Assembly (NCBI GenBank): GCA_008632985.1
Contig: QPGO01000145.1
Location: 62,001 to 126,000 of the forward strand
DNA length: 64,000 nucleotides
Direction of reading: 5' to 3'
Source: Psammoneis japonica
Lineage: Eukaryota
The position numbers and the translations under genes were made by a program. Of this stretch, positions 6,188 to 51,142 are shown piece by piece. Numbering within the stretch: position 1 is the first letter of the stretch; each line of letters starts with the position of its first letter. Below the pieces are notes generated by a model. The model did not search any database and was not told the DNA's origin. It worked only from the letters and a program-made list of their open reading frames with translations.

Positions 6188-6224
6188 GGTGACGGTTTGA
6201 GCGACAAAGCAAATGGTTTTATCC

Positions 6225-6455
6225 ACAGCGCCAAAAAAGTGAGGACGGTGAAGTACGAAATTTCAAGTCTCCTTTATGTTAGCAAATGCTACATGCATTT
6301 AATTTGGCGTGAAGGCAAACTCTGCTCTGCAATTCCGTTTACATTTTAGGCCCTAGGCCCTAGCTCACTTCTACAGCGCCAAATAAGTGAGGACGGGTGT
6401 AGTGCGAAATGTCATGCGCGATGATAGTAGTGTTTTATGGCCAATGCTGCATGCG
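6225..6455. repeat. Degenerate ~150-bp tandem duplication upstream of the desaturase gene, split by taggccctaggccctag
   Basis: acagcgccaaa(a/t)aagtgaggacgg at 6225 and 6373; aatgct(a/g)catgc at about 6285 and 6443. Confidence 0.6.
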
Positions 6456-6479
6456 CATGAAGCGAAGAAAGTAGAAAGT

Positions 6480-13700: not shown

Positions 13701-14793
13701 CCAGAAAGATTGGACTAAACAAAATACCTGTGGGTTCCCGGTGATGCTCTCGATTTCTTGAGTGGTAATCCCAGTCTCGATACAAGAACGTTGTGATGGA
13801 TGTCCTTTTTGAGTCCAGCATTCTGTCTATAGCCGCCCTACGAAGCGGCTCACTGTATTCGTTAAAGAGAAAACCACCAAGGTTGATGTTTCTCGGAGCA
13901 ATATGCCAAACAGGAAAGTAGTATGGATCTTCTTTTCCGGTCTCTCGCTCCCGCTTTCCTTGTGCGTCAATCCTGTAGACGCCTTGTTTAATCTTGGAGT
14001 GAATACTATCATCTTGTGGTTGTCCAGCTTCAGTCTCTGGCATGTGCTTGTAGACATTGCGAGCATATGCATTCCAGGGATGAAACGTCGCCTTGGTCAA
14101 GAGCGGCGCAAAGAGCACAGCTCTTGAGTGTGCCATTATGTTTGTTCCCTTGGTTTGATCGTCAAAGTCAGTCATTGTAACATTTGGCCAAACGGTATGC
14201 TCGTTGCCATACGTATCCATTTGAGTCGCCACCGTCTCGGGTGAAAAGCGACTGGTAAAGACACTGGCCAACGTGTAGGCCGCCCATACTTTGGTATCCA
14301 TATTGTGTATAAAGCTCTCGATAGCCTTTCTCGAAAAAGTATCATACTGAACACTAAAGTCTTTTTCCTCGTCCGTCTTGGTGAAATGCCACACCAAAAC
14401 AGACACCAACACGGTCGCACAGACAAGCATCACCACAACGGCAATCTTGACTCGATTGACCGCTCTGTTTCTCGCTAGCTGATTGAATTCTTCTTGAATC
14501 TTGGCATCATGTCCACCATCGTTGGTCTCTTCCATCATTTCATCGTCCCATTTCTTCACAATACTGTCTTCATCCTCTTCGACGAGACCGTCTTCGACGA
14601 GTCTTCGTATACTCTGCTCGACATTCATTCTTTTGGACATCATGGTGGAAGTTTGACGCAAAAAACCATCGCTATTTGTGACTGTAAGAGCAACGCTCTC
14701 ATGCCCGTCTGGTAGCTCGGACTCATCCGTAACGGATTCCTCGGGCAAGGGCGCCAATGGACGACGTGTGCTCAGTTTGCTTGATCTCGGCAT
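10780..14793 (-). CDS. Receptor-type nucleotide (guanylate-like) cyclase fused to an HD-type cyclic-nucleotide phosphodiesterase; exons 14793-12384 and 12293-10780
   Basis: Same cyclase motifs as the paralog. A GT-AG intron at 12294-12383 keeps the frame. PDE motifs FHSFEHACHV, HDVDHFG, IATD, ASDIAH and GFFDFYIIP. Confidence 0.92.
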
Positions 14794-15480
14794 GGCTTTG
14801 TTGTGACGATGAAATGACCACAAAGCCTCTTGAGTGAAATCTTGATTGAACGCTTTTGGTGGTGACCAGCAATGCCTCTCAAGTCAATGTGGTCTTGATT
14901 CCTCACCAGGCCCTTTGGTGACCTCGATAATGGAGAAAACGAGGAAAAGAGAGAAGCTTTGAAGCGTGAGCTTGCAACAATTAGCCCCCGAAACATTATT
15001 ATGTGTCCGATTCGTGGCACAATCGAGTGTCCCGGATTCATTCGCGAAGATTTCGAATTGAAAGATGTCTTGGGGCATAAGTACAACACGTTAACAATGA
15101 CTATTTTATGTCATTACCGTCATTAACGATAGGTCGCACATAGTTGAGGTGTGACCGGACACAGGTGTCCCATCGCAATGGTTGCATAATAGTATACGAG
15201 TACCAATATATTCAAAATGTCATATTTGTAAACAAGTCATATGACTTGTAAATGACCCATAAATGTTTTTTGTGAGAGACAGAGAGCGCTTTTTTCATCT
15301 GTTTGATTGTGTGTTTGACTTTGAAAAAGTGCGTGTGGTCTCCGCCTCACTTCATCACATACACACTAAAAATCTGAATCGACACCGCCCGTTGTGGCAT
15401 CATTGTAACAGTATGTCGCTGTTGCTGCTGTTTATTATTTGGTACCATATCATAAGGCTCGGTGTAAGGCGTGAAGGATA

Positions 15481-21239: not shown

Positions 21240-22700
21240 TAAAGGAAAAGGGAAAAAGGAGGGGATTTGACTGTTGAACACACACACAAATTGACCATGC
21301 AACCAGGGCCAGAGTTGCGCTGGCTTCTTTTGGTCCAGGGTGGTTGCTGCAGGTGCAAAGCAAGAGTGGGGCACATTGCAGCTGCAGAGGAGGGTTTACA
21401 ATGTGACGCTGAGTGTGTGCCACCAAGCTGGGCAGCCCAGCTTGGTTGTCAGCGCCAAGCACTGCCAGGCCAGCTGCCCTGGCTCCAGCTCCTGCTCCTC
21501 CCAGTGTGCGTCAACTGTTGAAGGAGCACCACATTGACTCAAAGGCTGTGTTTTAAGTGGGGCAGAGAAAAAAAAACTGTCATCTTGACTGGTGCTTGCT
21601 TCAAACCCTGCATCATGAGCGCAGCTCCTCTTGAGAAATGAGCGAGAACAGCCATTTTTTTGGCACCTCTCTTTGGTTGCCCACTTGGCATTGCCAACAA
21701 ATCTTGAACCTAACTTCACTCACAGTTTCTTCACTCTTCAACTAAAAAAGCAGGTTCAAGTTTTTGTTGGCTTCTTTGTGGCTGGGGGGTGCTGTTGCAG
21801 GCACAAATGGTGGGCACATGCCATGCGGCTCTGCTTGGCAACAATGTGATGCCAAGCATGTGCTGCACACCAAGGAGCCAAGCAGCCCAGCTCAGCTTTG
21901 AATGAAGCCCCAGGACAGCAGCCAACTCTGGGTGATCTCAGCATGGATTGCTTGTTCAAGCCATGCTGCACTCACCCCACAATGGTTTGTGTTGGGGTGG
22001 CTTGTTGCAAGCCAGAGCTGAGAAGTCAGCAGTCAGCCAGGGGCCTGTCTTGCAAAGGCCACACATGTTGACCCTGTGTAAAGCTGTGTGAGGAGCCAGG
22101 CACAGCAGCAATTGCAACAATGGCTTCATGGCCATTGGCCCCAAGTTGGCATTTGATTGGGAGCCAGTGCTGAGGGGCTGTGAAGTGTGGGGTTGGGAGC
22201 CAGCTCACACTCTCTTTGTTGTCACAAAGTGCTGCCACAGCTGTCTTTGCATTGCAACCAGTCAGGTGCAGTTGACCCCAAGTTGGCACTTGATTTGAAG
22301 TGACTGCCAACAAGCTGTGAAGTGTGGGGTTGGGAAAGTGCTGTTGCAGCTGTCCTTGCATTGTGGTGCCAGCCAGGCACACATGGCCAGAGGAGCAGCC
22401 TTGGCACATCCTGCTGACAAAGCCAGCAAAAAGAGTGGCTCTTGTGGTTGAGCTAGCACGCAGAAGGTCTGGGCACACCCCTGGGAAGTCAAACAGGAAG
22501 GAGGGCTCAGCATTGCCACCAGTGCCAGGCAGAAATGTCAGCTTGTCTTGAGAGAGATTCGAGCGCATCCTGCTGCAGACTGTGCTGCTGCGGAGAGCAC
22601 GGGAAAATTGAATGGCTGTTGTTCTTTGGACATTTGTGAAAAGAAGTCATCAAATGTGTTTTGTGGGGCTCATGCAGAATTTGTGTGTGGGCAATGACAA
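21240..22700. mobile_element. Degenerate TpA/CpG-depleted block with an internal ~138-bp direct repeat, possibly an LRR-gene relic
   Basis: Almost no TA. ccccaagttggca...gctgtgaagtgtggggttggga at about 22139 and 22276. Confidence 0.55.
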
Positions 22701-22773
22701 CAATCGCTAAAAAAAGTTTGTGCAGTTGGCGATTTCGCTAAATGACATTGGCGAGAACGGCTTGACGTTGAGT

Positions 22774-23130
22774 CGTGCGGTAAAAAAAAAACAGCTTGAA
22801 CAGCTCAACTTTGCGTCGTCCGGTAAAAATGCTGTTCGCACACAGCATCAGCGATTGCTCTCTGATGCCATAAAAAACCACCATGGCCTGTGCTGAGTCC
22901 TTCTTTCTTCCCTCAGGGCTTCGTATGATGATCGGATGCTTGGCGGAGGGCGGAGGATGTGGAACGCTCAAAGACAAACGTCAGCATGGAAAACGTCCGT
23001 CGGCTCTCATGCTGAAACCAAGAGGGTTTTGATTTGCCTCAACGGCAAAAGTTTAACGTCTCCGTTGCCGTACGGTAAAAAAGAATGCCATTTTTTTTAC
23101 CGTCCGGTAAAAAACAACTGCTTGAACGGC
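22774..23130. repeat. Clustered motif CGT(C/G/A)CGGTAAAAA
   Basis: Copies at 22774, 22817, 23069 and 23101, plus an inverted partial copy at about 23091. Confidence 0.6.
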
Positions 23131-23490
23131 ACGCGTTTCGGCGATCTGGTGAAAAAGAACTGCTGGCACGTCAGACGTCCGAGCAAAAGCGCGCGCAAAT
23201 TTTATGCGACAGCCGACCGTTGAACACATGTGTCCTTCTCTTCGATGTTGCATGCTGTTCAATGGAAAACAAGGTAAAATTGCACACCGTCTGGGCGGAC
23301 ACCCTGTTTTCCCGTGGTCTCCTGGGGTCTTGGGTCTTGAGTGATCATCGTGCGCTCGTTGCCATCGTCGCCAAGGATTTTCGAATTGGCAGAAAAGGTG
23401 CATCTTTTCATTCTCTGTACACTTCGCACTGGAAGGTGCGATGAAGAATCTTTGATCGAAGCTTGGAAGCTCAGGGAATCAGGGAAGCCA

Positions 23491-24914
23491 AGGACTGGAG
23501 GCGAGCGCGCGGCTGCATGAAGTCAGGCGGGACTCATTCAGTCACGTGTGCGCACACACCCTCCAAATGCCACTCACCATGAGAATTGGAACGGCATTTC
23601 ATGCTGTTGCCAAACCTTTTCAACAACAGCAGTGCTTTAGAACAGTTTCTGCCATCATGTGGAAACTGTTTTCATTGCTTGTTTGAAGGCAATTGCTCAA
23701 TCGAAAGGTCAAAAAATGGATTTTGCAATTGCATCACCATCCGCTGCTCTTTTTCGTGTGCTGTCGCGATGCAATCGCACTGCGCTTTCGTGTCACTGAC
23801 TCGTTCTTTTTATTTGATGCACTTGTTTCATGCACTCATGTGGGGAGCATTTCAACCATGTTAAAAGCCCTGACGAGGAACACCGGCTCTTAGTTTCATG
23901 TCGACATTTGAGCCATTTGTCTGCGGCCGACATTTCTGCGTCAATCGAAATGGGGCTGTTGCGTGTCATGCACTGTCTTTTGGATCAAGCCAAGCAACAG
24001 ATGGTCGATTTCATTGATAATTTGGATTGTGGTGTGTGTTGTTTGATGGCAGACAACGGTGAGTGTATGATCCACAACTTGCTGCCGCAAAAAATGATGA
24101 TGTTCACCTCGAACGCAAGCAACTGACGACACTTTCTTGCCATTTTGCATTTTTCTTACTCGTTGTTGAAGGCTTTAGGCACTTGTCGCTTTATTGCGGT
24201 TCTACACTGCATTTTTAGCCGTCAATGTCCAATCTGTCGTCTCGACTTCTCACGGTAAAAATCGGGATGGATGACGTGAATCCAGGAGGAGGTTGGGGTC
24301 GGAAAATTCGCCAGCCGGTGGTTTTACAATCTCTTGACAGTAAGTGGCACTTTTGTGATGTGAAATTCTACTTTTTTTGTTGAGATGTGTGCTAAAAATA
24401 TTCTTTGCTCATTGTCCAAAGTTGACGCTTTTCGATGCACTCACGACACGCACCTCGGCACCGGGTCGTGGAGCTTCTAGATGGGGTCCGTGTTCGGGAT
24501 GCTTTTTCAATTCGGCGTTCATTTGTGTCACCGTGACATCTTTGTCCACACCCCGCAGCTTCAATTCCGTCAACCAAGCATCAGCACTAACCCAATGCCC
24601 AACAAGAGACAACGTTTTCCGTGGCTTTATCGCGTCGTCGAACGCTGCGTGGATCGTTCTTTGTTTTGGTGCCATTTCATCGAATCGGCTGCACCCAATG
24701 CACAAAGTAGACTAATTGGGTATAGGTGGTTCGTAAACACTGATTAGGTGCAGTGAATATTGTTACTAGCAAAAGTTATTTGCATCGGCATGCCATTGTC
24801 GCACCCGTCGTCATTTTTTCCCGCGGTGCACCGCGGTGTCCAGATGGAAGCGTCGACGAGTCCCGAGCAGGCGGGACTCAAAACTTCATGTAGCCGCGCG
24901 CTCGCCTCAGTCCT
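23491..24914. mobile_element. Non-autonomous or internally deleted DNA transposon with ~33-bp TIRs and a probable TA target-site duplication
   Basis: Left end aggactggaggcgagcgcgcggctgcatgaagt (23491-23523). Right end reverse-complements to aggactgaggcgagcgcgcggctacatgaagt (24883-24914). Subterminal caggcgggactca at 23524 and 24868. Decayed minus-strand ORF at 24409-24705. Confidence 0.8.
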
Positions 24915-29541: not shown

Positions 29542-30159
29542 TGCTGATTCCAACTACACCTAACCCATGCAATTTCGATTTCCAGAAGTGTTTGTATGAA
29601 GAGGTCGTGTCAAATCGGAACACCTTGCCCTCTTTCATTTTTTATCATATATTCATCATGCGATCAGGGTCTGAGTTCTCATCGGAATAATTTGCTTATT
29701 CAAAAAAAGATACTAAGAAAAACCTTATTCGATTGTCCCAATAATTGTAGGTCAACAAGAATGAAATTTCTTTATTTGAATTTTTGATTTTTTCAGTCAT
29801 ATTCCGCGAACACTCATAAAACATAAAACCTTTTGAGTCATGAGGAAGAGCAATGCAGGTATCTACCCTACGTAAAATCAACGGAAATTAAATACTGCGT
29901 CAGGAATGGGTTCTTTGTTCTTTGGAGCAGTTATAATTACTATATATATATGAATATGTTAATGCAATAAAGATATCAAAATTTTTGGTTGACACTGATG
30001 AATGATCTTGCTCCTTCTTCTGGGTGGTCCGTACACTTTTTACGAGAAACGGATCTGCACCGAACTCCTCCTTCAGACATTCTGTGACACCAAAAAATCC
30101 ATCACCGCCACTCGTCTCATCAGAGTTCTCATCAAACATCCAGTGGACAACACATCACC

Positions 30160-31432
30160 ATGAAAATCAATGTCTGGTATCGTATCTTGAGTATTGGAGG
30201 TCTCTCGTTGCTCTCGCACTGTGAAACAGTTATCGGTTCAACGCCTTCTTTATCGAGAAAGGAGAGCAAGGTGAGCTTAGTTTGTCACTTGGCGGTTTCT
30301 GACACCTTACCGTGTACTGATTGATACGTTCTCCTCTTCTACTCGAACTTAAAAGACGAATACTGTCACCAAATCTCCCTTGGGAATCGATAACGAGGTT
30401 GTTATCAAATCCATATCAGAGTATTTATGGAACCACAAGTTCCCCGACGACTCGAGTGAACCTTTCAAGTTTCTCATCAAGGGATCCTATCCAGCTGCCG
30501 TCAAAGCTTTGGAAGCGTCAAATGGGGAGCTTGTTCTTCCGTTCAACGACATTGATGTCTTTGTTGAAGCACCGGTCAAGTCGGACGCAACATGCTCGCA
30601 CAAAGACCCAAGGACTCGTCTGATTAAATCCTCCTACGTCCAAGGTTTGATCCCCAACAGCGACGTGAAAGTTCAGGTGTCAATCATGTGCCAGCTGGAT
30701 CCAGAGTTTCATACAGTCGAATGGGCTGATATCAATGCGGTCATGGCAGGCTTCACAGTTGTACCTAAAAAGCACCAAAAGAAACTGGGAGATCCTAATG
30801 ATGCTGGCGAGAGTGTTATCCCGCAAATCGGAGATTGGATCCTTTCTCCCAGTTTTGAACAGTTCTTACACAAGCAGGTGCTTGAACTCGACTACCAAAA
30901 AATATATACCCACTTTCATGGACAACAGGCTGCCAAGAGCGTTATTCGTCTTCTCCACAAGGCGGAGCAGTTGGGCATGAAGTACAAGGTTCCTGACGAA
31001 CAAGAATTGAAGGACTTGCTCCACGGCAAGATTATCGGGGCTCAATACAAGCGCAAGTTCGACAAGCTGGATGATTCAACGAGCGACTACCATGCCGTCA
31101 TCAAGAGTCATTATGATGTCATTCCCGTGGAAGGCCACTCGGCCTTTTACATGTTTGTTCTCAAGGGTTCAGAAATCCCGACCCGTCCGCGCAAGCTTCA
31201 AGACTGTTACTATGAAGGCGCAGAAGGTTGCGAGCTCGGTGGCCAACCCGGTGGTGAGCCTGGTGGCGATCCCGGTGGTGAACCTGGCGATGAGCCTGGT
31301 GGCGAACCCGGTGGCGAAACTGGTGACGGAGACGGTTCTTCCTCACCAGGTTTCGACTCGATGGCTTATCAGAGTCTGGTAATCCTAAGCACTTTCGCAG
31401 CAGCATTCTTTGGAGCTTCTTGGTTCCTCTAG
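30160..31432 (+). CDS. Secreted, probably GPI/TM-anchored protein with a nucleotidyltransferase-like motif; exons 30160-30270 and 30356-31432
   Basis: In-frame GT-AG intron at 30271-30355; signal-like N terminus; IKGSY...FNDIDVFV and DINAV; GGEP stalk; hydrophobic C terminus. Confidence 0.7.
31238..31333 (+). repeat. 12-bp coding tandem repeat (GGEP)n
   Basis: ggtggcgaaccc-like units encoding GGQPGGEPGGDPGGEPGDEPGGEPGGET. Confidence 0.85.
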
Positions 31433-31528
31433 GAAGTTACTGAAAGTGGTCGTTCTATTTGTTCAACACAGCACCTGTTAAAGTGTACCCATTAAATCAA
31501 TTTACTTTAAATGTGACTAACGTGGCGT

Positions 31529-31665
31529 GTACTTGGATCTACCGGTACAGTGTACCCTCTCTCGTAGCTACTAGTAGAGGGCCTCTAGCTAGAGGTAGAG
31601 AAGAGCAGCCTCTCATTCAACCTACTCTCTAGAGCTAGTTTTAGCTGAGAGATAGAGAGAGACCA
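31529..31665. repeat. Low-complexity TAG/CTA-rich patch next to the LINE 3' end
   Basis: ctctctcgtagctactagtagagggcctctagctagaggtagag...ctactctctagagctag. Confidence 0.7.
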
Positions 31666-31685
31666 AGCTGATGGGAGTGGGCTGA

Positions 31686-33855
31686 TTTTTAAAATAGAAT
31701 ATTAAGAGAGGAAGGGAACAGCAGAGGGAGGCACGGAGGTAGCTGTAGTGACGGTAGAGTAGAAGGGCCGAAGGACACAGGACGAAGGGCGTTTAGAGGA
31801 AGGTATAGGTGAGGAGGGAGAAGGGAGGGAGGAAGTAAATCGGAGGACATGCGTAGAAAGGTGACGAACAACGTTGTAGCCAAGGGTTTGAGTGGCCCAC
31901 TGGGACGGGGAGGCTGTGCGTCCCAAAGCGATCGGCGGACAGGCGACGCCATGCGAAGTCAGCGGACGGAAGGATTGCAGACGGAGACGACAAGGCGTAG
32001 AGGAAGGCGGAGTAGGAGGCAGCGGAGTGACGGAAGTCAGAGGAAGAGGACCAGGGAGGCTTGGGTTGAGAGCAGATGGAAGAAGACGTAGGACCAAAGA
32101 GCAAGCGGTGAGCAAAGCAGCCGAGACCACCAAGGTGATCGACAGCAAAGGGGAGCAGGAAGATGCCATCATTGTCAAGCGAAGAAACAACAAGGGAGCC
32201 ATCAGCAGAGGAAGCAGAGGGGCCAAGGAACTTCAGTCTCGCGCTCGAGTGGTGTGCCTCAGTTAAAATGGGAGAAGAGGGAGCAGGCAGACCTGGAGGA
32301 GGGCAAGAAGAAGCTTGAGGGACGGCAACGTCCACTGCAATGTGATGATGACGGGAAGGAGCGGAAAGGGAGGCGGGAGGGGGGACAGAAATGCCGACAT
32401 CGGCGGGACGGAGAAGCGGGCGGGTGGGGAGCAGGTTGGTGGGTTCAAGATGAATGTCATTGGGGGATCGACAGAACTCTGCAAGAGGACCCAAAGTTTG
32501 GGCTAGGATGAAAACAGTGTCACGGAGACCATTGGAAAGCTTGGACTTGTGAGCACGGCGGCAAGAAAAGGCATGATCACCACAGGCGTCCAGAATGGCA
32601 TGGCCACAGGGACAGGGAGTGTTGACAAGGGACGGAGGAAGGATGGGGAGATGAAGCTTACGAAGGGCGGCGACAGCACAGGCGTCCGAAGAAAGACGGG
32701 AGCTTGGGAAGCGACGGGAGAAGGAATGAAGAGGAAGGCTTGTGAGCGGAGAGAGCAGTGAAGGCAGCAAAGATTGCACCTCGTAGGAAGAGTTGGCAAG
32801 GATGGAAGCAACTGCTTGCTGTTGATGTTCATGGTAAAGACGGCGAGCCAGGCCAGGAAGGGTGGCCGATTTATCCAGGGCAGCCAAGGAAGAAGAGGAA
32901 AGGGCAGAAGCAGAGGCAAGAACGGGGGCATGCCGACAGAAAAGCGTGCAGAGACGTGGGAAGAGTGAGGGTTGGACCAGGAAGAAAGAGAGAGCCGAAA
33001 GCAGCGCGGAAGGGAAACAGAAGCACCGGAGGCCAGGCTGACACCGTGCAAGGTGAAGCGGAAAGAGCGAAGGAGGGACACCAAAAAGGAAGGAATGGCG
33101 GCAGCTGTTGTGTCCCGAAGGCCAAACCCGCCTGAGGAGGCAGGGAGGAAAGCGATGGCAATGGAATGATCAGGAAAAGGGGCGGCGCAGGATGCAGCGC
33201 AGTGAAGAAAGCGGTGAGCAACGGTGAGAAGGAAGTCTTGAAATGGAGAAGTCCAGAGGAAGGGGTCGGGAGGATTGTCGGGGTCAAAGTTGCAGCAGAA
33301 GTCAGCCCCAAGGAGGTGGGCAGAGGATGGAACAAAGCAGTGTTTGAAGAGTTGAGCTTGGGTTTGTTTGTCATGGAGACGGGTGAGAAGCACATCAACT
33401 TCGTCGGAGATGGCAGAGGAAATGTCCGAAAGGAAGGAGCTGGCAAAGTCGTGAGAGCCGAGGGGTTGTCTGAGGAAGTGAACACCAGAGGCGAGTTCCG
33501 GGTTGCAGGAGGGGTCATTGGCGGGATTTAAGAAGGAGAGAGTGGCACGGAGGGGATCGGCGCGGGAAGGAGGAAGAGCAGGGATGGGGCTGACACCGGC
33601 AATGGAAGTGAGGATTTTGGTTTTACGGAGATTGAGGGAGATCCTGCAGGGAGCGCCGAGAGCGGAGAAGCGTTCGAGGAACCACGGAAGCATGGAATGG
33701 GGAAGAAAAGCACGAGCATCGTCAATGCAGGAGCCAACCGAGACAGATAATCGGCCAGGGATTCGTTCTCGAAGCTCTTGGTTGATCGGACGAAGAACCA
33801 GAGAGAGGACTAGACTGGCGAAGACAGGGCCGAGAGGGCATCCTTGGGCAAAGAT
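31686..33855 (-). mobile_element. 5'-truncated non-LTR retrotransposon with a restriction-like endonuclease (CRE-like), hypermutated
   Basis: RT motifs FAQGCPLGP and SCIDDA (YxDD position), LNLRKT, LPASSGGFGL; CCHC knuckle CPCG...GDHAFSC; RLE motif RPAD...AVDV; short A tail at 31686-31690. Confidence 0.88.
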
Positions 33856-33993
33856 TCAAACTCTTTCTGCTGACTGCGTGTGCCTTTCTCAACAGGAATC
33901 ATTCAGGGTCCTGAGAGTCATCACGCAGAAATTGTGCAGGAGAGCACTGAAAACAATCATTGTCAGTCTGTCCATCCATCCATGTGCGAACAT

Positions 33994-34106
33994 CAACTTC
34001 TCGGGAAATCAATTGAAATGCTATCTGATTGACGGTATTTTGATTCACACAGTGAAGGCCAATGCCGTCAACCAGATAGCATTTCAATTCAGTTCCCGAA
34101 AAGTTG
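33994..34106. repeat. Inverted repeat/hairpin with ~46-bp arms and a 21-nt loop
   Basis: caacttctcgggaaatcaattgaaatgctatctgattgacggtatt pairs with aatgccgtcaaccagatagcatttcaattcagttcccgaaaagttg, about 5 mismatches. Confidence 0.85.
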
Positions 34107-34361
34107 TTAGCTCTAATCACTCTCTCGTATGACATTGTGTACATTTCTACACGATTTTGTGTTTTTCCTTATGTAAAATATTAATTATGACCCAAGCGAC
34201 ATTTTCGAATGATTCCTATTTATTGTAAGGTTCTTGCGCGTGGAGAAAACACGCGTGAAGATCTGAAATTATTTCACAGAGCTGTTGCTATGGTACTTCC
34301 AGCCACACATCCCTCAAGATCCCTCAAGCGACAAGAGTTTGAAGTTCATAGGAGGTCCTAA

Positions 34362-35629
34362 ATGATACAGTCGAGGCCAATGCTTCAGAAACGCCGAACT
34401 CAATCCAGATTGACGACGAGCAGGATCAAGTGGAAAAGCATAAGATCGTTGTTCTTGCTTTTCACGATCGTCGCGGTTATTCTCAACACATACATCAGGA
34501 ACTTACCCAACGTCGCTGATAATCGTGTGCCAATCTACAATTTTCCTCCCGACACTAGAGGGCAAGCCGAAGTGGGCTTGCGATATAGTAAACGTCTCAA
34601 AGAAACAACCGACCCCGACACGGACGGTGCGGTGTGGGCAATCAATTATATTCGAATTCAAGGCAGCGATTCTGAGAAATGCAAGACCATTGTCAAACAC
34701 GTCAAAGAAAGCATCACTCGAAGAAGAAGGCGACGAACGTTTCACCTAAGCCGTAGCAACAGCCAGTGGCAAATTTTCCTTTACGATTATGCAGACAAGA
34801 CCCGAGATATCAGTGCATGCCTGAAAACGTTATCATCACTCTTGGGAGGCAAACATAATATCAAATACGCGCGACGAAGTCTTGTGGATGGCAGAGATTT
34901 CATTCCTTTCATCAAAAGCAAAATTTCAATGAAACAATTCCATTGCGACAACTATACGGGTACCCATCAAACTACTCCTCAACAGACTTGTCACAATACA
35001 TTTACAATGGCGTCGTTTCCAAGTTTCACATACAGGTGCGATCTGATCTCCTTCGCGAGCTACGTAGGCTGTATCACTTACAGCAATCCCACGTTCGTCC
35101 TGGAGACGTGGCTCATTTCTGGAGATTCCAACCGTACATACAGGGCGGGGCTCTCCGGAATCGCGTGAGCGAGGCAATTTCGTCACTCGAAGCAAAAAAC
35201 ATTTCCATCCTGGCCGATACAGTGAGTCCGCGCTCTAGGATCGGGCGCAATTCCGTGGCACCAGCCTATGCTCGGGCCTTACTGGAATATAAAATCATCG
35301 TGGTTTGCCAGCGAGATGAATACGAGGACCATTTCCGACTCTTGGAAGGAATGATTTCGGGTGCTCTCGTCATGTCGGATCCCATGGTCCACATGCCTCC
35401 TGGATACAAACACGGAGAAAACATTGTCGTGTACGAAAGTATCGCTGATCTCAAACAAAAGATAATGTATTATTTGGAGAACACTAGAGAGCGGCTACGG
35501 ATTGCTCGGGCTGGAAGGATACTTGCCGTGGAGCAGCACAGACCTTGGCATAGAATGGAACGATTCATCTTGGGACAATGGCCAACAAGCAGTGATCAAC
35601 CAGTCATTCCATTGCTACAAGGAGTGTGA
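34362..35629 (+). CDS. Type II membrane glycosyltransferase with a GT1-like (Glyco_trans_1_2-type) C-terminal domain; frameshift near 34932
   Basis: N-terminal TM helix; C-terminal RLLEGMISGALVMSD...HGENIVVYESIADLKQKIMYYL...ERLRIARAG. One extra A in atgaaacaatt joins the two ORFs. Confidence 0.75.
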
Positions 35630-39889: not shown

Positions 39890-41193
39890 CGTCGTGACAA
39901 TTCACACTCCTTTCTTCACAGGCGTGTGTGCTCTGAGAAAGCTGAAACGGCTCGCTCGCTCGATAAGCCATGTGCACTGGTACAAAAATCACGTAGAATT
40001 TTTATGTAGAAAAAATTAAAAAATCAGGGTTTGGGCCGATTTTTTTTCTCGTGCTTCTACCGTGCTTCTCGGCTCCACCGACGCCTCAAGGAATCGTTTT
40101 CCCCTGAAACCATTGACAATTTACATGATGACTTTTGTCTAAGTAACACGATTCTGTACATGAACACTTCAAAATTCCATTTTCAGAAATTCGATCAACA
40201 CTTCACTGCTGTCCCACCACGGTGAACATTTTCCAACGATGGAATTTTGCCGAACGGTGGACATCGTCATGTTTGTCATCAAAAAGTAAGTACGCAAAGT
40301 GTCAACCATTATGACTGAAATCTATTCCTTGAGGTCCTGGCCTATTTTTCGCAAAGCACGGGAAAAGCACGACGAACAAGATGTGCTACGTGAATTTTCT
40401 ACGTGAGTTTTGTACCAGAAATCGGCCCAAACCCTGTTTTCTGGGACTCATAACCCCTGCACATGGCTTATTCACCCCTCGAGCTCTGCTCTGCGCTCTG
40501 TCGTGTACCTCCTGCCGTGAGGGTGCATGTCCAAGCAGCGTGCCGCACCAGCAGCAACAACCATGTAAAAACCCCATGACGAGTGAGAACAAGAATTTCG
40601 CGAGAGCAAGGATGAGTGGAAGACTGGTCAAAAGATGAGGGGTGGCAAGGAAAGAAAAGCAGCAAAGGCCACGGACAGATTGCGCGGCGAGGGGCGCAGC
40701 ATGCTCTCCACACTTGCAGGCACCACTGCTGATGAGTCAGTGGAAATCAGCATTTCCAGGCCAGCTGCCCAGCACTTCAGTGACAAGCCACCACCACAGC
40801 ACAAGCAGCCGCCCCCACTGTGTTCTCTTGGAGAGACACCACCACAGCTGCCTGCTTTTTGAGACAACAGATGGGACTCAGATTGGGTGCGCAAAGGGGA
40901 GGATCTTGTGACAAAATCATGCTCTGAAGAAGAAAGAGATGATGGTGACTTGCTTCAAACACTGCTGAGATGAATGAATGGGAAACTGACAAATTTAAAA
41001 GGTGCCAAAATTGAGCCAGTCAGTTGCCCCTGTTCAGGGTCCAGAGCCACCCAACTTGGAGTGCACTTGTCTGCAAGACAGTGGCCCATGTCAGATGTTG
41101 GGCCAGCTTTGCTTTCTTGCCACATTTGCTGGTGTCAGCCACCTTGCCAGTGGAGAGAAATGTGCCAGCCAGGAGCCATCAATTGTCAAAACA
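39890..41193. mobile_element. Dispersed repeat, copy A, with short terminal inverted ends (..tgacaatt / aattgtcaaaaca), interrupted by a MITE
   Basis: Colinear with 47931-49737, from tgacaattcacactcctttcttcacaggcgtgtgtgctctgagaaa to gccatcaattgtcaaaaca. Confidence 0.8.
39966..40468. mobile_element. MITE with TIR agccatgtgca, TA flanks and long subterminal inverted blocks
   Basis: ta|agccatgtgca ... tgcacatggct|ta; absent from repeat copy B. Inverted blocks ctggtacaaaa.tcacgtagaa and cagggtttgggccgattt. Confidence 0.8.
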
Positions 41194-43603
41194 ATTCAAT
41201 TCAATCTTGACAATTGCGCAGCCTTTTCTGACTGCAGCCTGTGAGAAGTTTTTGCAACGCCTGGCATGCCTTTCAATCCACAACCATGGACAGGGTCAGA
41301 GTGTGTGTGCATGACAAAACAAACACAAATCTGCGTTTGCAGTTGTGGGTGGATGCACTGCAAACAACTGACAATCCTTGGAGCATCAATCAGCATCAAG
41401 GGATGCAACAGCCAAACCAGTGACTGACACTGGCTGCTTCAAGCCAGTGTCTCTTGCAGTCCTGATCCTCTGCCAGAACTTGTTCCAAGGGCTTGACAAA
41501 CCATCCAGACAGATGGTGATGAGAGATGGGGTTGTTGTGGAAGGTCCCGTGTTCTTCTTCTGCTTTCTGTCTAAAATGCCATTGATCTGCAGCGAAGTTT
41601 CTGACATTTCCAACTCATCCTCTTTCTTCCGGTGCCTCCACATGTCCCAGGCAATGGCCCACAATTGAGCTGTCAAACCTGATGCCCAGCACAGTCCTGT
41701 GGTCCTTCTTTCCAGATGTTTGCAGTGCAACTGTTGTGCATGCGCCCACTCAACAACTGGAAAACCTCCAGCAAGGGAGTGCTTGCCCAGAGATTCTTGA
41801 GCCACAAAAGCTGACTCCACCAAGGGATGTTCTGATGAAATTGCAGGTGCAGGAAGTTTGTCATGCCATGTGGACAGGAACCTGATTGCTCCCCTTTTTG
41901 TCTCTGGGTGTGTGCGCTGTTTTGCCAGCCAATCTTCGAGCTCCTCCGAAAGCTTCTTGCTCCACAATTCTTGCATTGAAAAGGATTTACACCAAAGCAT
42001 GTGATCAATGCTGTTTTCTACTTTTCCACATTGTGGACATGCTGCTGTTTCAATCTTCCCCCAATGGCGCAGGTTGCTTTTTGTGGGAACAAAGCCCGTG
42101 GACCATTTCAGTTGCCAGAGTTGCCGGAAAGTGGGGCTTCCATTCATTGCCTTCCCAAGAGCCACCCAGACAATCTCCATGTGGACTGGCTCTGCTCTCA
42201 GCTTTTTGCTCCAACATTTGTCTGTGGGAGGTCCACAGATGTGATCCACTGAAGCCTGCTTGTCCCAGTTTGTCAGAGCCATTCCTCCAGCGGACATGTT
42301 CCAAACCGTTGGTGTCATCTCACAGTGTTGAAAGTGCTCAGTTCCTTTCAGTGCCTCCCAGTGTGCTTTGGCCAACAAATCCATCTCCACATTTAGAACC
42401 TCTGACAGCTGACTGAGTTGTGAGTCATGAGCTGTGCATGCCTGTGATGTGGATCACAGTCACACACCCAGTGGACAGACATTGGGACACTCAGTTGGCG
42501 GAAGATCTGATCGGATTCTCCTCCGCTCACTTTCTTTCTGACTGGTGCCATGTTGTCATCACTGTCCTGGTGCACATTAGATTGTGCCAGCAGACCCTCT
42601 GTCCATTGGGTTGTGACCACATCATGCTAATCCTCCATCACCGGAGTGCCCACAAAAAGCAAAATCTGTGCCACGGAGTGCCATTTTCGTCGAGAAAATG
42701 CCATCTCTGTCTCGCAAATTTTCCCACCAATTGCACTTGGAGGACCATCTCAGACATGGCAGAGCTCTATGCAGCCTTTTTTGTGCACCACCATGATGAC
42801 TTCATCAACTGAACCTGTCCATTTGACACAGATGGAGTCCATGCTCTTCAAATTTGGACCCAACTCTGCTCATCCTGATGCCCACACTCACCTGAACAAC
42901 TTGCGTTTGGACAAAATTTCAGATCCTTCAGTCATTGTGAATGGCGTCACACCACCAAACCTCATTGATGACATTGTCAAGATCTCACGCCAAGAACACA
43001 TCAACCAGGTTGTTGTGCCCCTGGCCACAACAACTGCAGACACAGCATGCATTGGACCTGTCACTGAACAAGCCAACCTCAAAGTTCATGCCCCTGAACA
43101 ATGCAAGACCCATCTCAACCAACTGACACCTCACAAAGCAATGTCTGAAGCTGTCAAAGCACAAGAAGACACAATGATCATTGTCACAGTCAGTGCCCAC
43201 CACCTCCACTTTGCTGAAAAGGAGTGTGAGTGCAAGAGCTGAGGTGATGTCAGCACCACCCCTTTCACTGATGACACTGTGAAACCAACTGCGGACACAA
43301 AGTCAGCGCCCCACAATGCTCCTGCGGGAACAGCTGAAGAGTTTGCCAAGGCACTGGCAAAACATTTGCCAGGTCCCAAGCCATGCGAAGATGCTGTTGA
43401 CCACGCTGACAAGAAAATGCCAACCACTGCCAGCACCCCTGCACCATCTTTTGGCAGATCCACTCTTGTGTTCATGTTTGGTCCTGCAGGACTGCCCAGA
43501 AATGTCAAAGATCGATGTGATTGCAAACAGAAAGGACAGCCAGGAAACCACCAACCCAGACATCTTCACATTTTTAAATTGTGGTTTCTTCCCATGGACA
43601 AAT

Positions 43604-44048
43604 TGCAGCATGCATGCAGACAAAAGGTCATTTTGTCACACCCTTTGTGACATTTAAAGGCTGTGACACGTCGCCGTGATACATTGACTCTCATTGGTGG
43701 CTGTGCATTGCACTCCTCCCCATGTGTCACGCGTCCATGCGGCTCTTTACTAACATGCACTGACACTGCACGGTTTTGGCGGAACAGTGTGGGCACGCAC
43801 GAAGGAACGTGCAGAACTGCACAGAGTTTTACGCGTTCGACAGTGATCAACGTTGCTGCAGACAACTCCCACTCAGGGTTTCGAACCCCTGGCCTCCTGC
43901 CCAATGGTTGCGATGAACCACTCCGCTGTGAATTCACAATGCAGCATGCATGCAGACAAAAGGTCATTTTGTCACGCCCTTTGTGACATTTAAAGGCTGC
44001 AACACGTCACCGTGATGCACTGGCTCTTGTCAGCAGCTGTGTGTTGCA
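43604..44048. repeat. 109-bp direct repeats (43604-43712 and 43940-44048), 336-bp period
   Basis: Ungapped alignment; all differences are transitions. Confidence 0.9.
43866..43935 (-). other. tRNA-like (SINE-head-like) relic
   Basis: Minus strand has A-box-like agcggagtggtt and B-box ggttcgaaaccc; no complete cloverleaf. Confidence 0.4.
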
Positions 44049-45771
44049 AGGTGGCATGTCATCAATGCTTCTTGCCAGAGGTGCCAGCTTGAGGAAGAAG
44101 GGTGTCCTGCCTCAGGCCACACACATGGCTTGTGTCACATTGGTGCTCCCCATTCCAAAACTGTGGCAGAATTCGAAGCCTGTCTCCACTCGCGATGTCC
44201 GAGATGCAAGTTGCATTCATCCACATTCTGCAGTTGTTGATTTTCCCAAGCTCTTGTCGGGCACCAGGGCTCCTCCCGTGGCTCGCATGCCTCCTTCCCA
44301 GCAGTCTGTCATCAACTGAAGTCCTAAAATCACTTCTTGACAGGATGCATTTGCATCTTGTTCGGGTGTGAAAGGTGGATCTGTGTTGTCCACAAAGGCA
44401 CAACAGATGCAATGAAAGACCTGACGTGTGATCGGTGTCACCGCATGTGCTCCATGTCCTTCTGCCCGTGACACACCATTTGCCTGTGCACTCACAAGAA
44501 GCCAGATTGCTGGAGCAGCACCACATCCTTAGAAGATGCCTTGCAAATGAATTTCAAGTGCTGTGTGTGCTTCTTTGGAATCCCTGTAGATGGCTCTGAT
44601 GCAGCAGCGCTGCATCTGATGCAGGGTGCCCAGCACGGCAAATGCCAGGTCCTCTCCTGCCCCACAGAACATCATGTGTGTGGCCGCAATGGTGCGCAGC
44701 ATCCTGTCACAATGTGATTTCATGTCAGTGCTGTTTGTGGCTCCTGCTTTGTGCAATGGACGGAACATGTCTCCAGTCAGTGCCTTGTCAAGGGCACAGT
44801 GGATGGGGGCTCTGTGACGTTTCCTGCTTCCGCAAGCTTCCCACGGGGGATTGACTTGTGTGTCTCAGCCTGTCGTGCCAATGCCATTCTGCAATGCTTG
44901 TTCATTTGATCAAACACTGCATCAAAGAGGACAACAGTGTGGAACTTCTTCACATGGGAGGAGTTGGATTTCTTGGGGATCATGATGTCTGCCGCTTTAG
45001 CCCAACTTCTTGGTGTGCATCCATGTTTCACTGGAATGGCTGCCACACAGGCATCGGACTCAGCAACTGTGGGATTTTGAGACCCAGCTTTGCAGCCGGC
45101 AAAGGATGGACCAAAGGGGCTGCTGGACATCTGAGCTCTCATTTTCTTCCAGCCAGTGACATGCTCTTCAGTTGTGTGCAGCATGCAAAGCTCTGGCACT
45201 GGCGGTTCAGGACATTGGAGCTGACGGAGAAACTTGGTTGCACGCTCATTGGCTCCCGGGGGAATCTTGTGCATTCCCTCTAATGCTTCATTGGCTGCTG
45301 GAGTGTTTGCGAGGTGTCCAAAGTCTGAGAGAAGAGGTTCCTTCATGAACGGCACTTCGCACCCTTTTTCGAAGGTTTGCCCGCATCGGGACATTCCCTC
45401 TCTGCCACATGTTCTTTCCATGTCTCTCTTGGTGCAGCACTCTCGGTCTCGGCCCGAGTTGTCTTGTGCCGTCACCACCTGCAGCACTGGTCCAGCTTTC
45501 CCTGTGACCTGTTTTATCCGCCTAAATGCTCTCTTCTGATGACAAGCATGTCCCAGGATCCTCTCTTCCTGCTCGTGTTCATCAAAGTAGATGGCAGACG
45601 ATTGCAAGAGTGAACAAGACGAGTGGGACGAGGCCGCGATGTAGGTTCCATAGAATAGCTGTTCGTTAGGCGAGCGTTAAACGAAAATGCAGCTTTTAAT
45701 GCTCTGCTGAAGAGGCGCTGTACTCAGGTCTTAGTCATTCGACATCATACACCAATACTATGATTTACTAG

Positions 45772-47930: not shown

Positions 47931-49737
47931 TGTCTTGACAATTCACACTCCTTTCTTCACAGGCGTGTGTGCTCTGAGAAACTCGCGCTCGTCTGCGTCT
48001 GCCTGCTCTGCCCTCTGTCGGGCACCTCCTACCATGAGGGTGCATGTCTAAGTGTGCCGCACCAGCAGCAACAACCATGCAACAAACCGCCATGATGTTA
48101 ATTGTAAACAAGTTATTTGTTGATTCATTGACCGCCCTGTTGCCATGATCCAAGATGAGACAAAAATTTCACAAGCAAGAAGGATGTGAACTGGGGAAGT
48201 CTGGTCAAAAGTCGAGGGGTGACAAGAAAAGAGAAAAAAGCAGCAAAGGCCGCTGACAGATTGCACTGTGAGGGGCACAGCATGCTCCCCACACTTCTTG
48301 GCACCACTGCTGATAAATCAGTGAAAACCAGCATTTCTGGGCCAGCTGTCCAGCATTTGATTGACAAGCCATCACAGCACAAACGACTTGTTCCAGACTT
48401 AGGTGCACTCACGCGCGAAAAAATGACCCTTTTTGCATGAAACGCGCGGTCCACACTTGCGGTACCATTTTCGATAGTAAAAACATAACAATTTACAAAT
48501 GTGTTGTTATGGGTACATACAGAATTGTCTTGTGCGTGTACCCATGTATTCGAAACTGTTGATGGACTCAGTTATTAGTCGCTAAATTGTACCGTAAGTT
48601 GAGAGCTCGAATTTTCCGATGAGCGATTTATATATGCCTAAATGTAACAAGAAACATATAAAATATTATTCATATATATAAATTAAGTCTTTAACATAGC
48701 ATAATTAATATTTTGTTTTTATACGCGAATATGAGTTACACTCAACGGATCGAATAAAGCATTCGTTGATTAATAAGTTTAGGACGACGTGAGAAGAAGT
48801 GTAGCTCAGCCCACGCAATGGCGTCGACTTCGGACCATTTTTCACGGTTTAAAAGGCATAAACGATTGATACACTTGAATCAGTCGAATATATTGAGGAA
48901 ATATACATGGTAATAGAAAAGAAATGGTCCTTAGAGGCAAATTGTGAGTGAATAGAGGCTCAATTGTTGTTGCTGACAGATTTAGCATTATTGTGCCGCG
49001 CTGCAGCCTTCAACAAGCATTTTCACTATTGTTGTTGATGACACAGACTATATCAAATACGTAGATCGTGGTCATGACATTCAATTTTCCATAAGGCTGA
49101 AAAAAGTGGGCCGTCATGGTCACTGAAAGCCATGGCCGGTTTGGCTGTTTGTTTGTTCGAGTTTATTCTGTTTATTTTACTTATAAGCCATTGATATGAT
49201 CAATTTTATTAAATATGTCCGGTGTTCAATATAAAGCATTAAAAAATTATTTTTTCTGCGAAAAGGGGCATGTGCGCGCCACCTAAGTCTGGAACAAGTC
49301 AAACAGCCACCCACACTGTCTTTCCCAGATGGCGCTGCTGCAGCCAAGAAACGGCATGAGAGAAAATGCACCCAAGCTCTCTTGGAGAGACACCACAGCT
49401 GCTTTTTGAAAGAGCAGGGGATTCAGATTGGGTGCAAAGGGGGGGATCTTGTGGTCAAATCATGCTCTGAGGAAGAAAGAGGTGGCTGCAACTTGTCTCA
49501 AACGTTGAGACAAGCAACGAGTGGGAAGCTGACAAATTTAAAAGGCACCAGGCCAAACGTTGAGCCAGTGGCCCCTGTTCAAGGTCCAGAGCCACCAAAC
49601 TTGGAATGCTTGACACTTCAAGACAGTGGCCATGTAAGATGTTGAGATGCCTTTGCTTTCTTGCCGCATTTGCCAGCATCAGCCGCCGAGCCAGTGGAGA
49701 GAAGTGCGCCAGGCAGCAGCCATCAATTGTCAAAACA
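47931..49737. mobile_element. Dispersed repeat, copy B (homolog of 39890-41193), interrupted by a 916-bp MITE
   Basis: Colinear homology to copy A; termini tgtcttgacaatt / aattgtcaaaaca. Confidence 0.8.
48385..49300. mobile_element. 916-bp non-autonomous DNA transposon with perfect 21-bp TIRs and a 4-bp TSD (AAAC)
   Basis: aaac|gacttgttccagacttaggtg ... cacctaagtctggaacaagtc|aaac. The empty site is seen in copy A (cacaagcagcc). AT-rich non-coding interior. Confidence 0.93.
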
Positions 49738-49739
49738 TC

Positions 49740-50350
49740 AACAAGCTCACACACCTCATGCTGACACCTGCAGTTGTTGCTTCAAGGACAAGGACAAGTG
49801 CAAAAGCCAGCAGAATGACACAAACAACATGGCAGCTGTGCCACCAGCTGGGCTGGCCTTTTCACAAGATTTTGATGATGTGATGGATGGGCCTCAACAC
49901 AACAGAAGAAATTTCTTTAAGGTTGCTTTGTTGGCCAAGGCTGTGTCACATTAAAGAAACTTGTTTGTTTGTGACAAATGCTTTGCTGCTGCTGGCACTG
50001 CACTCCAAAGACCTTGTCACAGCTTTTGCAGCAGAAGAAGGGGTGTGCAGGAGGCTTTGCTGGGAGATGGCAGCACTTGTCCACAACAAGACCAGTTGAG
50101 TTCAAAAGGTGTGCTGCATGGAAGTTTGCTTTCTGGGAAGAGTGCAGAGCTTTTCTTGATTTCAGGCAGCACAAAAGATGGTTGCTCAGCCCGCCCTTCC
50201 CCCTGCTGAGAGGGGGAGAAGCTGTTGCTTGAATCTCATTTGTGGCCATTGCCAGAGTTAAGAACAAACCATTGTGTTGATGGTGGCTGAAAAAGAGAAA
50301 GACATGTGATGCCAATGACTGTCCCGTGATCATAGAGGAGACAATGGGAG
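49740..50350. mobile_element. Degenerate TpA/CpG-depleted TE-derived block
   Basis: TA survives almost only as ttaa; no intact ORF. Confidence 0.5.
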
Positions 50351-51142
50351 CCAATCAGCTGAGGATCGATGTGGGGTTGCCGGTGCTGGGCGTGTCGACT
50401 GTCGCCTGGAGCAGACTATGAGCCCGGGAACCAGAAACCCGGGCGTGCTCTAAATCGGCACTGGCGATAGGGCCCTCTAGAAAGTAGGTCTACACACACT
50501 ACACTGCTTCTTTTCTCTCTACTCTCTTAATTAAGGGCTGCTTCTACGAGAATTCAGGCGACCTGGGACTGCCTTCACATTGTGGCAACCTTTCTCCTCA
50601 CGGAGATCGTCACTGGCGGAAAGATGTCACGTAGATTTCAGCCGCTTTATTGGCGACCTCCGTAACGAGATCCCTCGAAACTGCTGTGGCGTCACTGACG
50701 AACGATCTGCCGACCATTGCGCCATTACGCCCGGCATCAAGGAGTCGCTCACCGCGACTTTTCTTCATGTGGCGACTGCTGGCAGATTTAGCGTAAGAGT
50801 CAGCTCGCTTTCGACATTTTCTCATTGTATTCGAGGAAGCCATGGTAAAGTATGGTGAATGATAGCAATTGAAGAAACTGTGGTTGTTGCAATGTAACCA
50901 ATGGAACTCAGAACAAGAAATTGAGAAGTAAAAGTGTGAACGCGAGACCGACAGGCACGCACAAAGCGCGCGTCCTCGGTCTGCGTGGTCCGAGAACTCT
51001 TCAAACCAGTTACAGCATTCGCAATAGCATTGTAGATATCTTTTGGCAGAGATGAAGCTCGGAGTCTGATCTTAAATTCTTCATCAACATCACAACGTTG
51101 TAAATGGAAGCAAGTCGGAACAACCACCCGTGAATTCCTTTT

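Follow-up and report, generated by a model that had tools for sequence, protein, structure and literature searches.

A TpA-poor LINE relic in a diatom genome probably records TpA-directed transition pressure on its source lineage

Results

Anatomy of the LINE copy

We analysed a 64,000-nucleotide stretch of the genome of the diatom Psammoneis japonica (GenBank assembly GCA_008632985.1, contig QPGO01000145.1, positions 62,001 to 126,000 of the forward strand), hereafter the window, in whose numbering all positions are given. The window contains a long interspersed nuclear element (LINE) that an initial annotation, made from the letters alone, had described as stripped of the dinucleotide TpA (TA) with CpG (CG) retained. 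The element, its reading-frame pieces and its compositional zones are listed below with observed/expected ratios (o/e) of dinucleotides; RT stands for reverse transcriptase and ORF for open reading frame.

31686..33855, minus strand: 5'-truncated copy of a multi-copy non-LTR (long terminal repeat) retrotransposon, from RT motif B to the C-terminus plus a very short 3' untranslated region
32971..33855, minus strand: frame piece 1, with RT motif B (QGCPLGP), motifs C-E and the thumb region; profile positions 487-788
33715..33732, minus strand: RT motif C, S-C-I-D-D-A (TCC TGC ATT GAC GAT GCT)
31946..32872, minus strand: frame piece 2, with a linker, CCHC knuckle, restriction-like endonuclease core and LPFAVDHLGGLG tail
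32561-32614, minus strand: CCHC knuckle, within frame piece 2
about 32231-32446, minus strand: restriction-like endonuclease core (E143, D158 of RPAD, D181, K214), within frame piece 2
31702..31938, minus strand: frame piece 3, C-terminal ORF tail (tblastn to P0003 residues 1112-1147), with the stop codon TAA at 31702-31704
31881..33855: TA-poor body, 13 TA in 1975 nt, TA o/e 0.17, CG o/e 0.78
32872..33529: run of 657 bp without any TA, CG o/e 0.72
31686..31880: TA-normal 3' terminus, 195 nt with 14 TA (o/e 1.36), pyrimidine-rich in the sense strand and mostly coding

Residues 461-1147 of P0003, a full-length relative of 1197 aa, aligned by tblastn to 33852-31840 in three pieces (33852-32974, 32860-31946 and 31938-31840), with two frameshifts and no in-frame stops. 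A profile was built from 39 long homologs; hmmsearch of the three relic pieces against it gave E values of 7.7e-84, 2.1e-76 and 5.2e-8. Exhaustive phmmer searching recovered 319 relatives at E<=1e-3, including 25 at E<=1e-30, with a top identity of 39-44%. The two long relic ORFs matched no Pfam family, and a word-indexed protein search with the translated relic frame returned nothing at E<=0.01.

The full-length relatives span 1150-1360 aa. Inspected by eye, they carry an N-terminal Cys/His region, RT, a C-x-C...H...C knuckle, an R-P-A-D-V-G ... D-V-T-V region and an L-P-F-T-V-D-H-L-G-G-L-G tail. Pfam RVT_1 was found in six of six intact relatives, four of them exceeding the 29.6-bit cut-off and one, P0005, falling just below it at 29.3. 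It was their sole Pfam family at E<=0.01, no APE domain being found in any of the six; the relic itself lacks the N-terminal half. A CCHC knuckle and a PD-(D/E)XK endonuclease are located downstream of RT, the arrangement of LINEs with a restriction-like endonuclease (RLE). A sequence profile search of the PDB placed two R2 proteins at the top (8e-8 and 1e-7) with L1 ORF2p next; phmmer with P0005 against the PDB found no match, and Foldseek with a model of the C-terminal part gave nothing at E<=0.001. No rRNA, spliced-leader, snRNA or tRNA target was detected at the insertion site (Rfam at the gathering score and a tRNA scan, 30000-35500), and the flanks differed between the two 3' junctions seen. 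The homolog profile, the RT and the predicted endonuclease bear out the identification of the locus as a LINE. By architecture, not phylogeny, it is classed as a 5'-truncated RLE element with an R2/CRE-type organization, and it is a dead insertion in the diatom genome.

TA and CG content of the copy

A recount agreed with the initial annotation, which had estimated about 10 TA amid abundant CG in 32101-33900 and about 17 TA in the terminal 31681-32100. The former interval holds 10 TA against 73.3 predicted by base composition (o/e 0.14) and 91 CG (o/e 0.74); the latter holds 17 against 16.8 predicted (o/e 1.01). The window overall has a TA o/e of 0.44 and a CG o/e of 0.81. The change within the element is a step near 31880: 14 TA lie in the 195 nt of 31686-31880 and 13 in the 1975 nt of 31881-33855 (Fisher p=1e-8). 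There are 22 TA-free runs of at least 250 bp in the window, and CG o/e exceeds 0.4 in just one of them, 32872-33529 in the LINE (0.72), the other 21 lying at 0-0.38. Methylation-driven CpG decay was not seen in the LINE, with a CG o/e of 0.74-0.78 against 0.81 for the window.

Base composition of the element is strongly asymmetric. The plus strand is 64-79% purine throughout, with a GC skew of 0.37, an AT skew of 0.38 and 13% A in the sense strand. DNA of 26 relatives (L001-L026) was taken from metagenome contigs, and in 26 of 26 the sense strand has G at 0.12-0.18 and purine at 0.30-0.53; L002, with an intact 1290-aa ORF, has a purine fraction of 0.34. About half of these lineages are A-poor as well, so that their coding DNA is 30-39% purine. 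The pyrimidine-rich sense strand is thus native to the clade. Because transitions leave the purine content of a strand unchanged, the skew is not a product of TA>TG or TA>CA changes; because it is native, a protein rich in S, P, L and F is normal for the clade. In the relic protein S, P and A are pushed somewhat further, and K, N, T and M are scarcer.

Compared with L002 and L003, its nearest relatives by composition, the relic body has a TA o/e of 0.17 vs 0.51-0.59, the remaining dinucleotides being alike; four same-composition relatives (L002, L003, L017 and L009) lie at 0.44-0.59. The deficit extends to all codon phases (0.14/0.33/0.11 in the relic vs 0.50/0.59/0.67 in L002). CA at codon boundaries stands at 1.61 in the relic vs 1.24 in L002, and overall TG and CA are 1.33 and 1.22 vs 1.40 and 1.05. 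Sense AA is not depleted (o/e 1.91). The TA deficit is therefore specific to TA and separate from CpG decay; composition-matched relatives and codon-phase ratios agree with the earlier claim that TA loss is independent of CpG deamination.

The RT motif, tyrosine content and protein conservation

Motif C reads S-C-I-D-D-A at 33732-33715 on the minus strand, as had been reported. At its Tyr column the 39 homologs have Y 27, I 5, F 4, V 2, W 1 and C 0 times, so that no homolog carries the Cys of the relic; the residue after DD is T in 17 of 39. The initial annotation derived the motif from YIDDT by two TAC->TGC changes. Only one of them is TAC>TGC; the second change, GAT|ACT>GAT|GCT, straddles two codons. 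The passage from Y-x-D-D-T to C-I-D-D-A fits two sense-strand TA>TG changes.

The further relics proposed earlier (GADFCCNFD, LFKHC, LPFAVDH and GLGCFAH) are all present in the translation. In LFKHC, Cys is the residue of 33 of 39 homologs, the consensus of the family, and hence no relic of Tyr; the Cys residues of GADFCC and GLGCFAH occupy variable columns. A Tyr-column test had just six columns with Y at 0.3 or above to draw on, a small sample (relic residues C, F, F, L, C and A). The 396-aa ORF was confirmed to lack Tyr, as does the whole 450-aa stop-to-stop frame from whose first Met it runs (32503-33855, minus strand); the second reading frame of the element (31793-33169) has 7 Tyr.

The relic protein is barely decayed, matching 156 of 208 consensus columns (75%) vs 72-84% in 12 listed intact homologs. 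Of its 94 differences at conserved columns, 8 are replacements of the sense TA>TG type; seven TA-normal relatives together have 16 such replacements among 1043 differences (p=4e-4). These eight are Thr>Ala (six), Ile>Val (one) and Tyr>Cys (one), and TA-context replacements are thus enriched in the relic.

TA loss in related elements

The metagenomic relatives include pairs in which one member has lost TA. The near-intact L011 (contig positions 1-3600) has a 706-aa ORF with no Tyr, a TA o/e of 0.04 and a CG o/e of 1.02; its TG and CA stand at 2.10 and 1.31. It shares 74.6% identity with L005 over 3.6 kb, in a single frame across 1096 aa at 71% identity. Among 145-160 aligned TAs of L005, L011 kept 4-5%, 49-51 having become TG and 55-60 CA; retention was 0.56 for CG and 0.61 for other dinucleotides. 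The 44 aligned L005 TAs in Tyr phase became TG (Cys) in 24 cases, CA (His) in 18 and something else in two, and none was kept. At T|A codon boundaries there were 19 CA vs 1 TG, a preference for the silent route from which it follows that the L011 purge was filtered by selection on the protein. The closer pair L016 and L017 (96.1% identity) gave a similar picture: 10 of 21 TAs were kept (0.48), seven became TG and two CA, and retention was 0.93 for other dinucleotides and 0.91 for CG (p=4e-8 for the TA difference). The faster loss of TA than of CpG claimed for the window copy thus recurs in both pairs.

L013 has a TA o/e of 0.21 and 0.4% Tyr, and retains S-Y-C-D-D. Its ORF of 1106 aa compares with a maximum of 696 in 300 Markov-chain simulations. 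L013 (1-3318), L014 and L020 are 97%-identical LINE copies in three assemblies, with 7.6% His and 3.1% Cys. They apparently form a functional lineage adapted to a near TA-free state. No TA-specific excess was found in comparisons within L004-6, between L010 and L018 or between L019 and L023. Judged from these alignments, the TA pressure is real and CpG-independent, differs among lineages or hosts, and can act on lineages that remain functional.

The copy family and the timing of TA loss

Contigs of sequencing run X1, which may be the source sample of the window, were placed on the locus at a likeness of at least 80%. The 798 contigs placed comprise 103 at 99% or more, 171 at 95-99%, 267 at 90-95% and 257 below 90%. 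Summed contig depth, which is not equivalent to copy number, is 60 on the unique left flank vs 900-6800 on the element, rising toward the 3' end. The family is clearly multi-copy and shows the 5'-truncation gradient usual for LINEs. The repeat boundary falls at about 31700, where the flank of another copy diverges; a unique-flank contig stops at 31739. Self-BLAST found no second LINE copy within the window.

Of 276 variable places, 38 were analysed, and at each of these at least 90% of the depth of other copies differs from the window. The family has TA and the window TG at four (31918, 32344, 32744 and 33592), and these four TAs persist in 95-100% of the other copies' depth. A family CG is restored at eight, a CG is confined to the window copy at six and a TA at one. 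Transition counts are A>G 75 and G>A 79, with C>T at 52 and T>C at 32. Because only four of the 38 private differences restore TA, the family majority is itself TA-poor; most of the TA depletion of the window copy thus seems to come from its family. The codon-boundary CA excess of the relic also points to loss under purifying selection before the copy died. The initial annotation had the process act in situ on a fairly young copy, and these data do not bear that out: few private differences restore TA, and the codon phases suggest loss in the source lineage.

A smaller part of the loss may be private. Four losses on about 30 family TAs (2.8% of bases) give a binomial p of 0.02, and the window copy shows private change at about 13% of TA sites, 7% of CpGs and 1.4% of other bases. 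This is only suggestive, on four events, of TA being still the most mutable class in the window copy.

The spared 3' end

Over its final 195 nt the element combines the strand skew of the clade with normal TA; this part is mostly coding, the stop codon lying at 31702-31704. The depletion had been said to fade near the element edge. This is true of the 3' end (14 TA in 195 nt) and not of the 5' truncated edge, where 4 TA in 355 nt show no comparable rise; the sparing therefore belongs to the 3' end of the element and not to edges generally. Among the relatives, L011 has 7 TA in its last 270 nt vs 8 in its first 3300 nt, and in its last 400 nt it kept 3 of 20 L005 TAs vs 4 of 139 in the body (p=0.04), so that this end is still mostly purged. 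L013 and L014 are TA-rich in the last ~150 nt, and the TA-normal L002 is so in its terminal 100 nt. The 3' 220 nt showed no stable RNA fold relative to shuffles (z=-0.03; body control z=0.58), and a structured 3' element hence receives no support from the folding test. Constraint on the 3' ends of source elements, shielding of RNA by RT and the nearby host gene are all possible causes of the sparing, and the first is our preferred guess.

Surroundings of the element in the window

The other features of the window are as follows.

30353..31432, plus strand: host ORF whose end lies about 250 bp away from the 3' end of the LINE
33886..34130: unrelated high-copy repeat adjoining the truncated 5' end, outside the LINE; summed depth 6200-11100 vs 60 on the unique flank
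33994-34048 and 34052-34106: inverted repeat within 33886..34130, 55-nt arms, 84% complementary
7000-9000, 21500-22500, 40700-45500, 49500-50500, 54000-55500 and 62500-64000: six blocks poor in TA and CG, TA o/e 0.00-0.20

The host ORF at 30353..31432 had nothing above the Pfam cut-off. A neighbouring SIR2 ORF has its best named matches in Nitzschia, Pseudo-nitzschia, Cyclotella, Seminavis, Skeletonema and Thalassiosira (47-61% identity), which marks the host as a diatom. A PurH-like host ORF matched bacterial clusters only. Host genes in the window have a TA o/e of 0.46-0.57 in every codon phase and normal CpG. The repeat at 33886-34130 gave only a sub-threshold Rfam match to mir-3660 (36.9 bits vs a gathering score of 70).

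The six blocks have a CG o/e of 0.07-0.30, CA of 1.57-1.96 and TG of 1.68-1.97, an excess of CA and TG to which CpG loss also contributes. Pfam found no family in 85 ORFs from these blocks and the LINE right flank. Since TA-free repeats are open in many frames, long ORFs there are not evidence of genes. The blocks are probably old methylated repeats that were also purged of TA. Repeats here are TA-purged in general, and the LINE family is the case without added CpG decay. Segments of about 79% identity are shared by 40824-41193 and 49378-49737, in two of the blocks. The interval 22700-24600, beside a CG-poor block, holds 0-4 TA per 100 nt, with a TA o/e of about 0.1-0.4 per 500-nt bin and a normal CpG of 0.86-1.15; neither a long ORF nor recognisable coding is present there.

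Two paralogous CHASE-guanylate cyclase genes lie at 770-3223 and 12328-14883, both on the minus strand, with 75% identity over 573 nt. Both adjoin related downstream sequence, and a PDEase gene at 10780-12297 is beside the second. It seems that a pair of signalling genes was duplicated locally here as a segment.

Discussion

A single precedent bears on the LINE. In mutation-accumulation lines of the chlorarachniophyte Bigelowiella natans (Mettrop et al., bioRxiv 10.64898/2026.01.13.699255), 231 of 302 new mutations fell in integrated giant-virus and virophage regions. All GC-biased mutations in the viral regions were at TpA, yielding TpG or CpA, at about 1000x the background rate and in some lines only. 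TpA-poor coding sequences were enriched for RT, endonuclease-RT and DDE domains, and an ADAT2-like adenosine deaminase was proposed as the cause. Diatoms, stramenopiles and retrotransposons are not named in the preprint.

We favour the explanation, at a probability of roughly 0.6, that the window copy is a TA-poor dead LINE from a lineage under TA-specific transition pressure and selection, likely arising from TpA hypermutation by the host. The lineage would have experienced TpA to TpG or CpA transitions that spared CpG, and most of the TA would have been lost in the source lineage before the window copy was made. Purifying selection would have passed silent or tolerable changes, such as third-position T>C, Thr>Ala and Tyr>Cys, both motif changes included, and a smaller share of the loss may have followed insertion. 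The most likely cause would be hypermutation of TpA, by the host, in DNA that is foreign or repeated; by analogy with B. natans, this could be adenine deamination by an ADAT2-like enzyme. The mutational and host-driven nature of the pressure, its action on DNA and the responsible enzyme are thus put forward conditionally. For the initial annotation, the outcome is partial support: a TA-specific, CpG-independent transition pressure on the LINE clade stands, and its placement in situ mostly does not.

Several points weigh against this explanation. The family state is based on contig depth at 38 of 276 variable places; independent purging of every copy would also give a TA-poor majority, and the private TA losses are few (4). 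The strands are opposed, 4 of 4 private losses being sense TA>CA vs 8 of 8 older nonsynonymous changes sense TA>TG. The absent 3' fold lends nothing to the idea of 3' constraint. A TA-poor state throughout the family alongside a conserved protein is also what selection against UpA in RNA would leave. The precedent comes from one preprint, which deals with a distant alga and with viral insertions. Its cut-offs are given there as a Rho of at most 0.43 for TpA and of at least 1.52 for CpA+TpG; the relic passes the former (0.17) but not the latter (TG 1.33, CA 1.22), its CA and TG excess being too modest for the enrichment cut-off.

It is unlikely that a copy with ordinary TA was stripped on site by a DNA-level process of a chromatin domain that fades toward the host gene. 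The B. natans process does work on integrated DNA in vegetative growth, the window copy has four private TA>TG changes, and a fast burst would look much like this near-intact frame that has lost TA heavily. From 31881 to about 34000, the TA-poor zone also mismatches the element, running ~150 nt into the adjoining repeat and ending 195 nt short of the 3' end, the side toward a host gene; that repeat, however, is itself high-copy and could be poor in TA independently. Only 4 of 38 analysed differences restore TA and other copies are TA-poor too. The TAs that the family has and this copy lost, four in all, persist in 95-100% of the others' depth, where the purge is unsaturated. The boundary CA excess (1.61) and the 19 CA to 1 TG of L011 reflect a selection filter, which is impossible for a dead copy. 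Rather improbable, in our estimate, is editing at the RNA or complementary DNA (cDNA) stage, in which a TadA/ADAT-like deaminase would act on UpA/TpA in the LINE ribonucleoprotein or first-strand cDNA at every round of retrotransposition, new copies would arise already mutated, and bound RT would shield the 3' ~200 nt. Such editing would account for a spared 3' zone of 150-270 nt, present also in L011 and L013/L014, for TA-poor, CpG-rich copies of any age, and for the gradual depletion of active lineages (L013). Against it, the last 400 nt of L011 are mostly purged too (3/20 vs 4/139 TAs kept, p=0.04), both strands of L011 are about equally affected (49-51 TG, 55-60 CA), the unclassified TA-free window blocks have no Pfam sign of retroelements, and the B. 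natans process strikes single-copy integrated viral DNA.

The signature could instead reflect no special mutation process: active elements may be selected against UpA in their RNA for stability or translation, an idea proposed for cytoplasmic RNAs and RNA viruses (PMC3829696). The intact, TA-poor L013 retains the motif Tyr and synonymous routes are favoured, as would then be expected. We nevertheless regard this as quite improbable, given that L011 kept 0 of 44 aligned Tyr-phase TAs and has a 706-aa ORF without Tyr, that the motif Tyr of the relic became Cys, a state in 0 of 39 homologs, and that TA-context nonsynonymous changes are enriched. Host mRNAs stand only at 0.46-0.57, and repeat-like blocks without Pfam matches (85 ORFs), where RNA selection is unlikely, reach a TA o/e of 0.00-0.20. 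That low TA is a by-product of extreme strand composition (sense A 13%) is hardly credible. The skew is real and large (GC skew 0.37, AT skew 0.38), but o/e already corrects for composition (10 vs 73), the equally skewed 3' tail has a TA o/e of 1.36, and same-composition relatives stand at 0.5-0.6. The o/e deficit, the skewed but TA-normal tail and these relatives together rule it out.

If TpA-directed pressure on the LINE lineage is accepted, several consequences follow. TpA hypermutation of foreign DNA has one prior report (2026), which concerns one rhizarian alga and viral insertions; with its signature also borne by LINEs of a diatom, the process would be phylogenetically broad. The pairs L005/L011 and L017/L016 are natural before-and-after pairs for measuring its specificity. 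The data suggest that mobile elements adapt by shedding TA, even Tyr, and the drift of Tyr to Cys or His hides TA-free repeats from Pfam. More tentatively, at somewhat less than even odds, diatoms may run an active, CpG-independent genome defence in which adenine at TpA is deaminated wherever it lies in retrotransposons or other repeats. This would be the chlorarachniophyte process again, and so ancient and at least SAR-wide (stramenopiles, alveolates and rhizarians); LINEs would survive it only by way of near TA-free, Tyr-poor genes, with a ~200-nt 3' end exempt. If true, that exemption may mark where the element RT protects or needs RNA.

Our literature search found no other report of TpA-specific loss in diatom or algal transposons; the word 'dinucleotide' occurs 0 times in PMC2806351, and PMC5029228 has nothing on diatom RLE LINEs. 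As an element, the relic resembles the RLE LINEs (R2, CRE, NeSL, R4 and Hero) in its single ORF, in which a CCHC knuckle and a PD-(D/E)XK-type endonuclease follow RT in that order, and in its 5' truncation and 3'-biased copy gradient. Among solved structures R2 proteins match best, both in sequence profile and in fold, at 10-12% identity in the modelled part. Target-specific insertion is common in R2, CRE, NeSL and R4; here no rRNA, spliced-leader, snRNA or tRNA target was found at the insertion site, and the flanks of the two 3' junctions seen differ.

Among the processes that mark repeated DNA, fungal repeat-induced point mutation (RIP) also disables it by dinucleotide-specific transitions. 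RIP converts CpA to TpA, raising TA, whereas the LINE has lost TA in exchange for C:G pairs, the reverse of a RIP signature. Deamination of 5-methylcytosine likewise yields TpG and CpA and is evident in the six other window blocks (CG o/e 0.07-0.30), but the LINE keeps a CG o/e of 0.74-0.78, near that of the window (0.81). Hyperediting by ADAR or APOBEC leaves deaminase-style transition clusters that are heritable in retroelement copies. ADAR also edits after A, and sense AA is not depleted here (o/e 1.91); the G>A/C>T bias of APOBEC is not seen either in the transition counts given above.

The B. natans process differs from the present case in several respects. There, new mutations arose in culture, in giant-virus and virophage insertions of a chlorarachniophyte; here, a diatom LINE and metagenomic LINEs were compared by sequence. 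The depletion is also much deeper here (o/e 0.04-0.2 vs 0.45 for the viral region there), and a selection filter and a spared 3' end are seen that the available account does not describe. The likenesses are nonetheless close. In both, TpA alone is targeted, by transitions alone and on both strands, CpG is uninvolved, and foreign or repeated DNA is affected and host genes are not. Transitions of TpA to TpG or CpA occur in L011/L005, in L016/L017 and in the window copy, and CG is kept at an o/e of 0.74-0.78 in the relic and 1.02 in L011. The LINE signature is best filed as a further instance of the TpA hypermutation of B. natans, found in a diatom and on LINEs.

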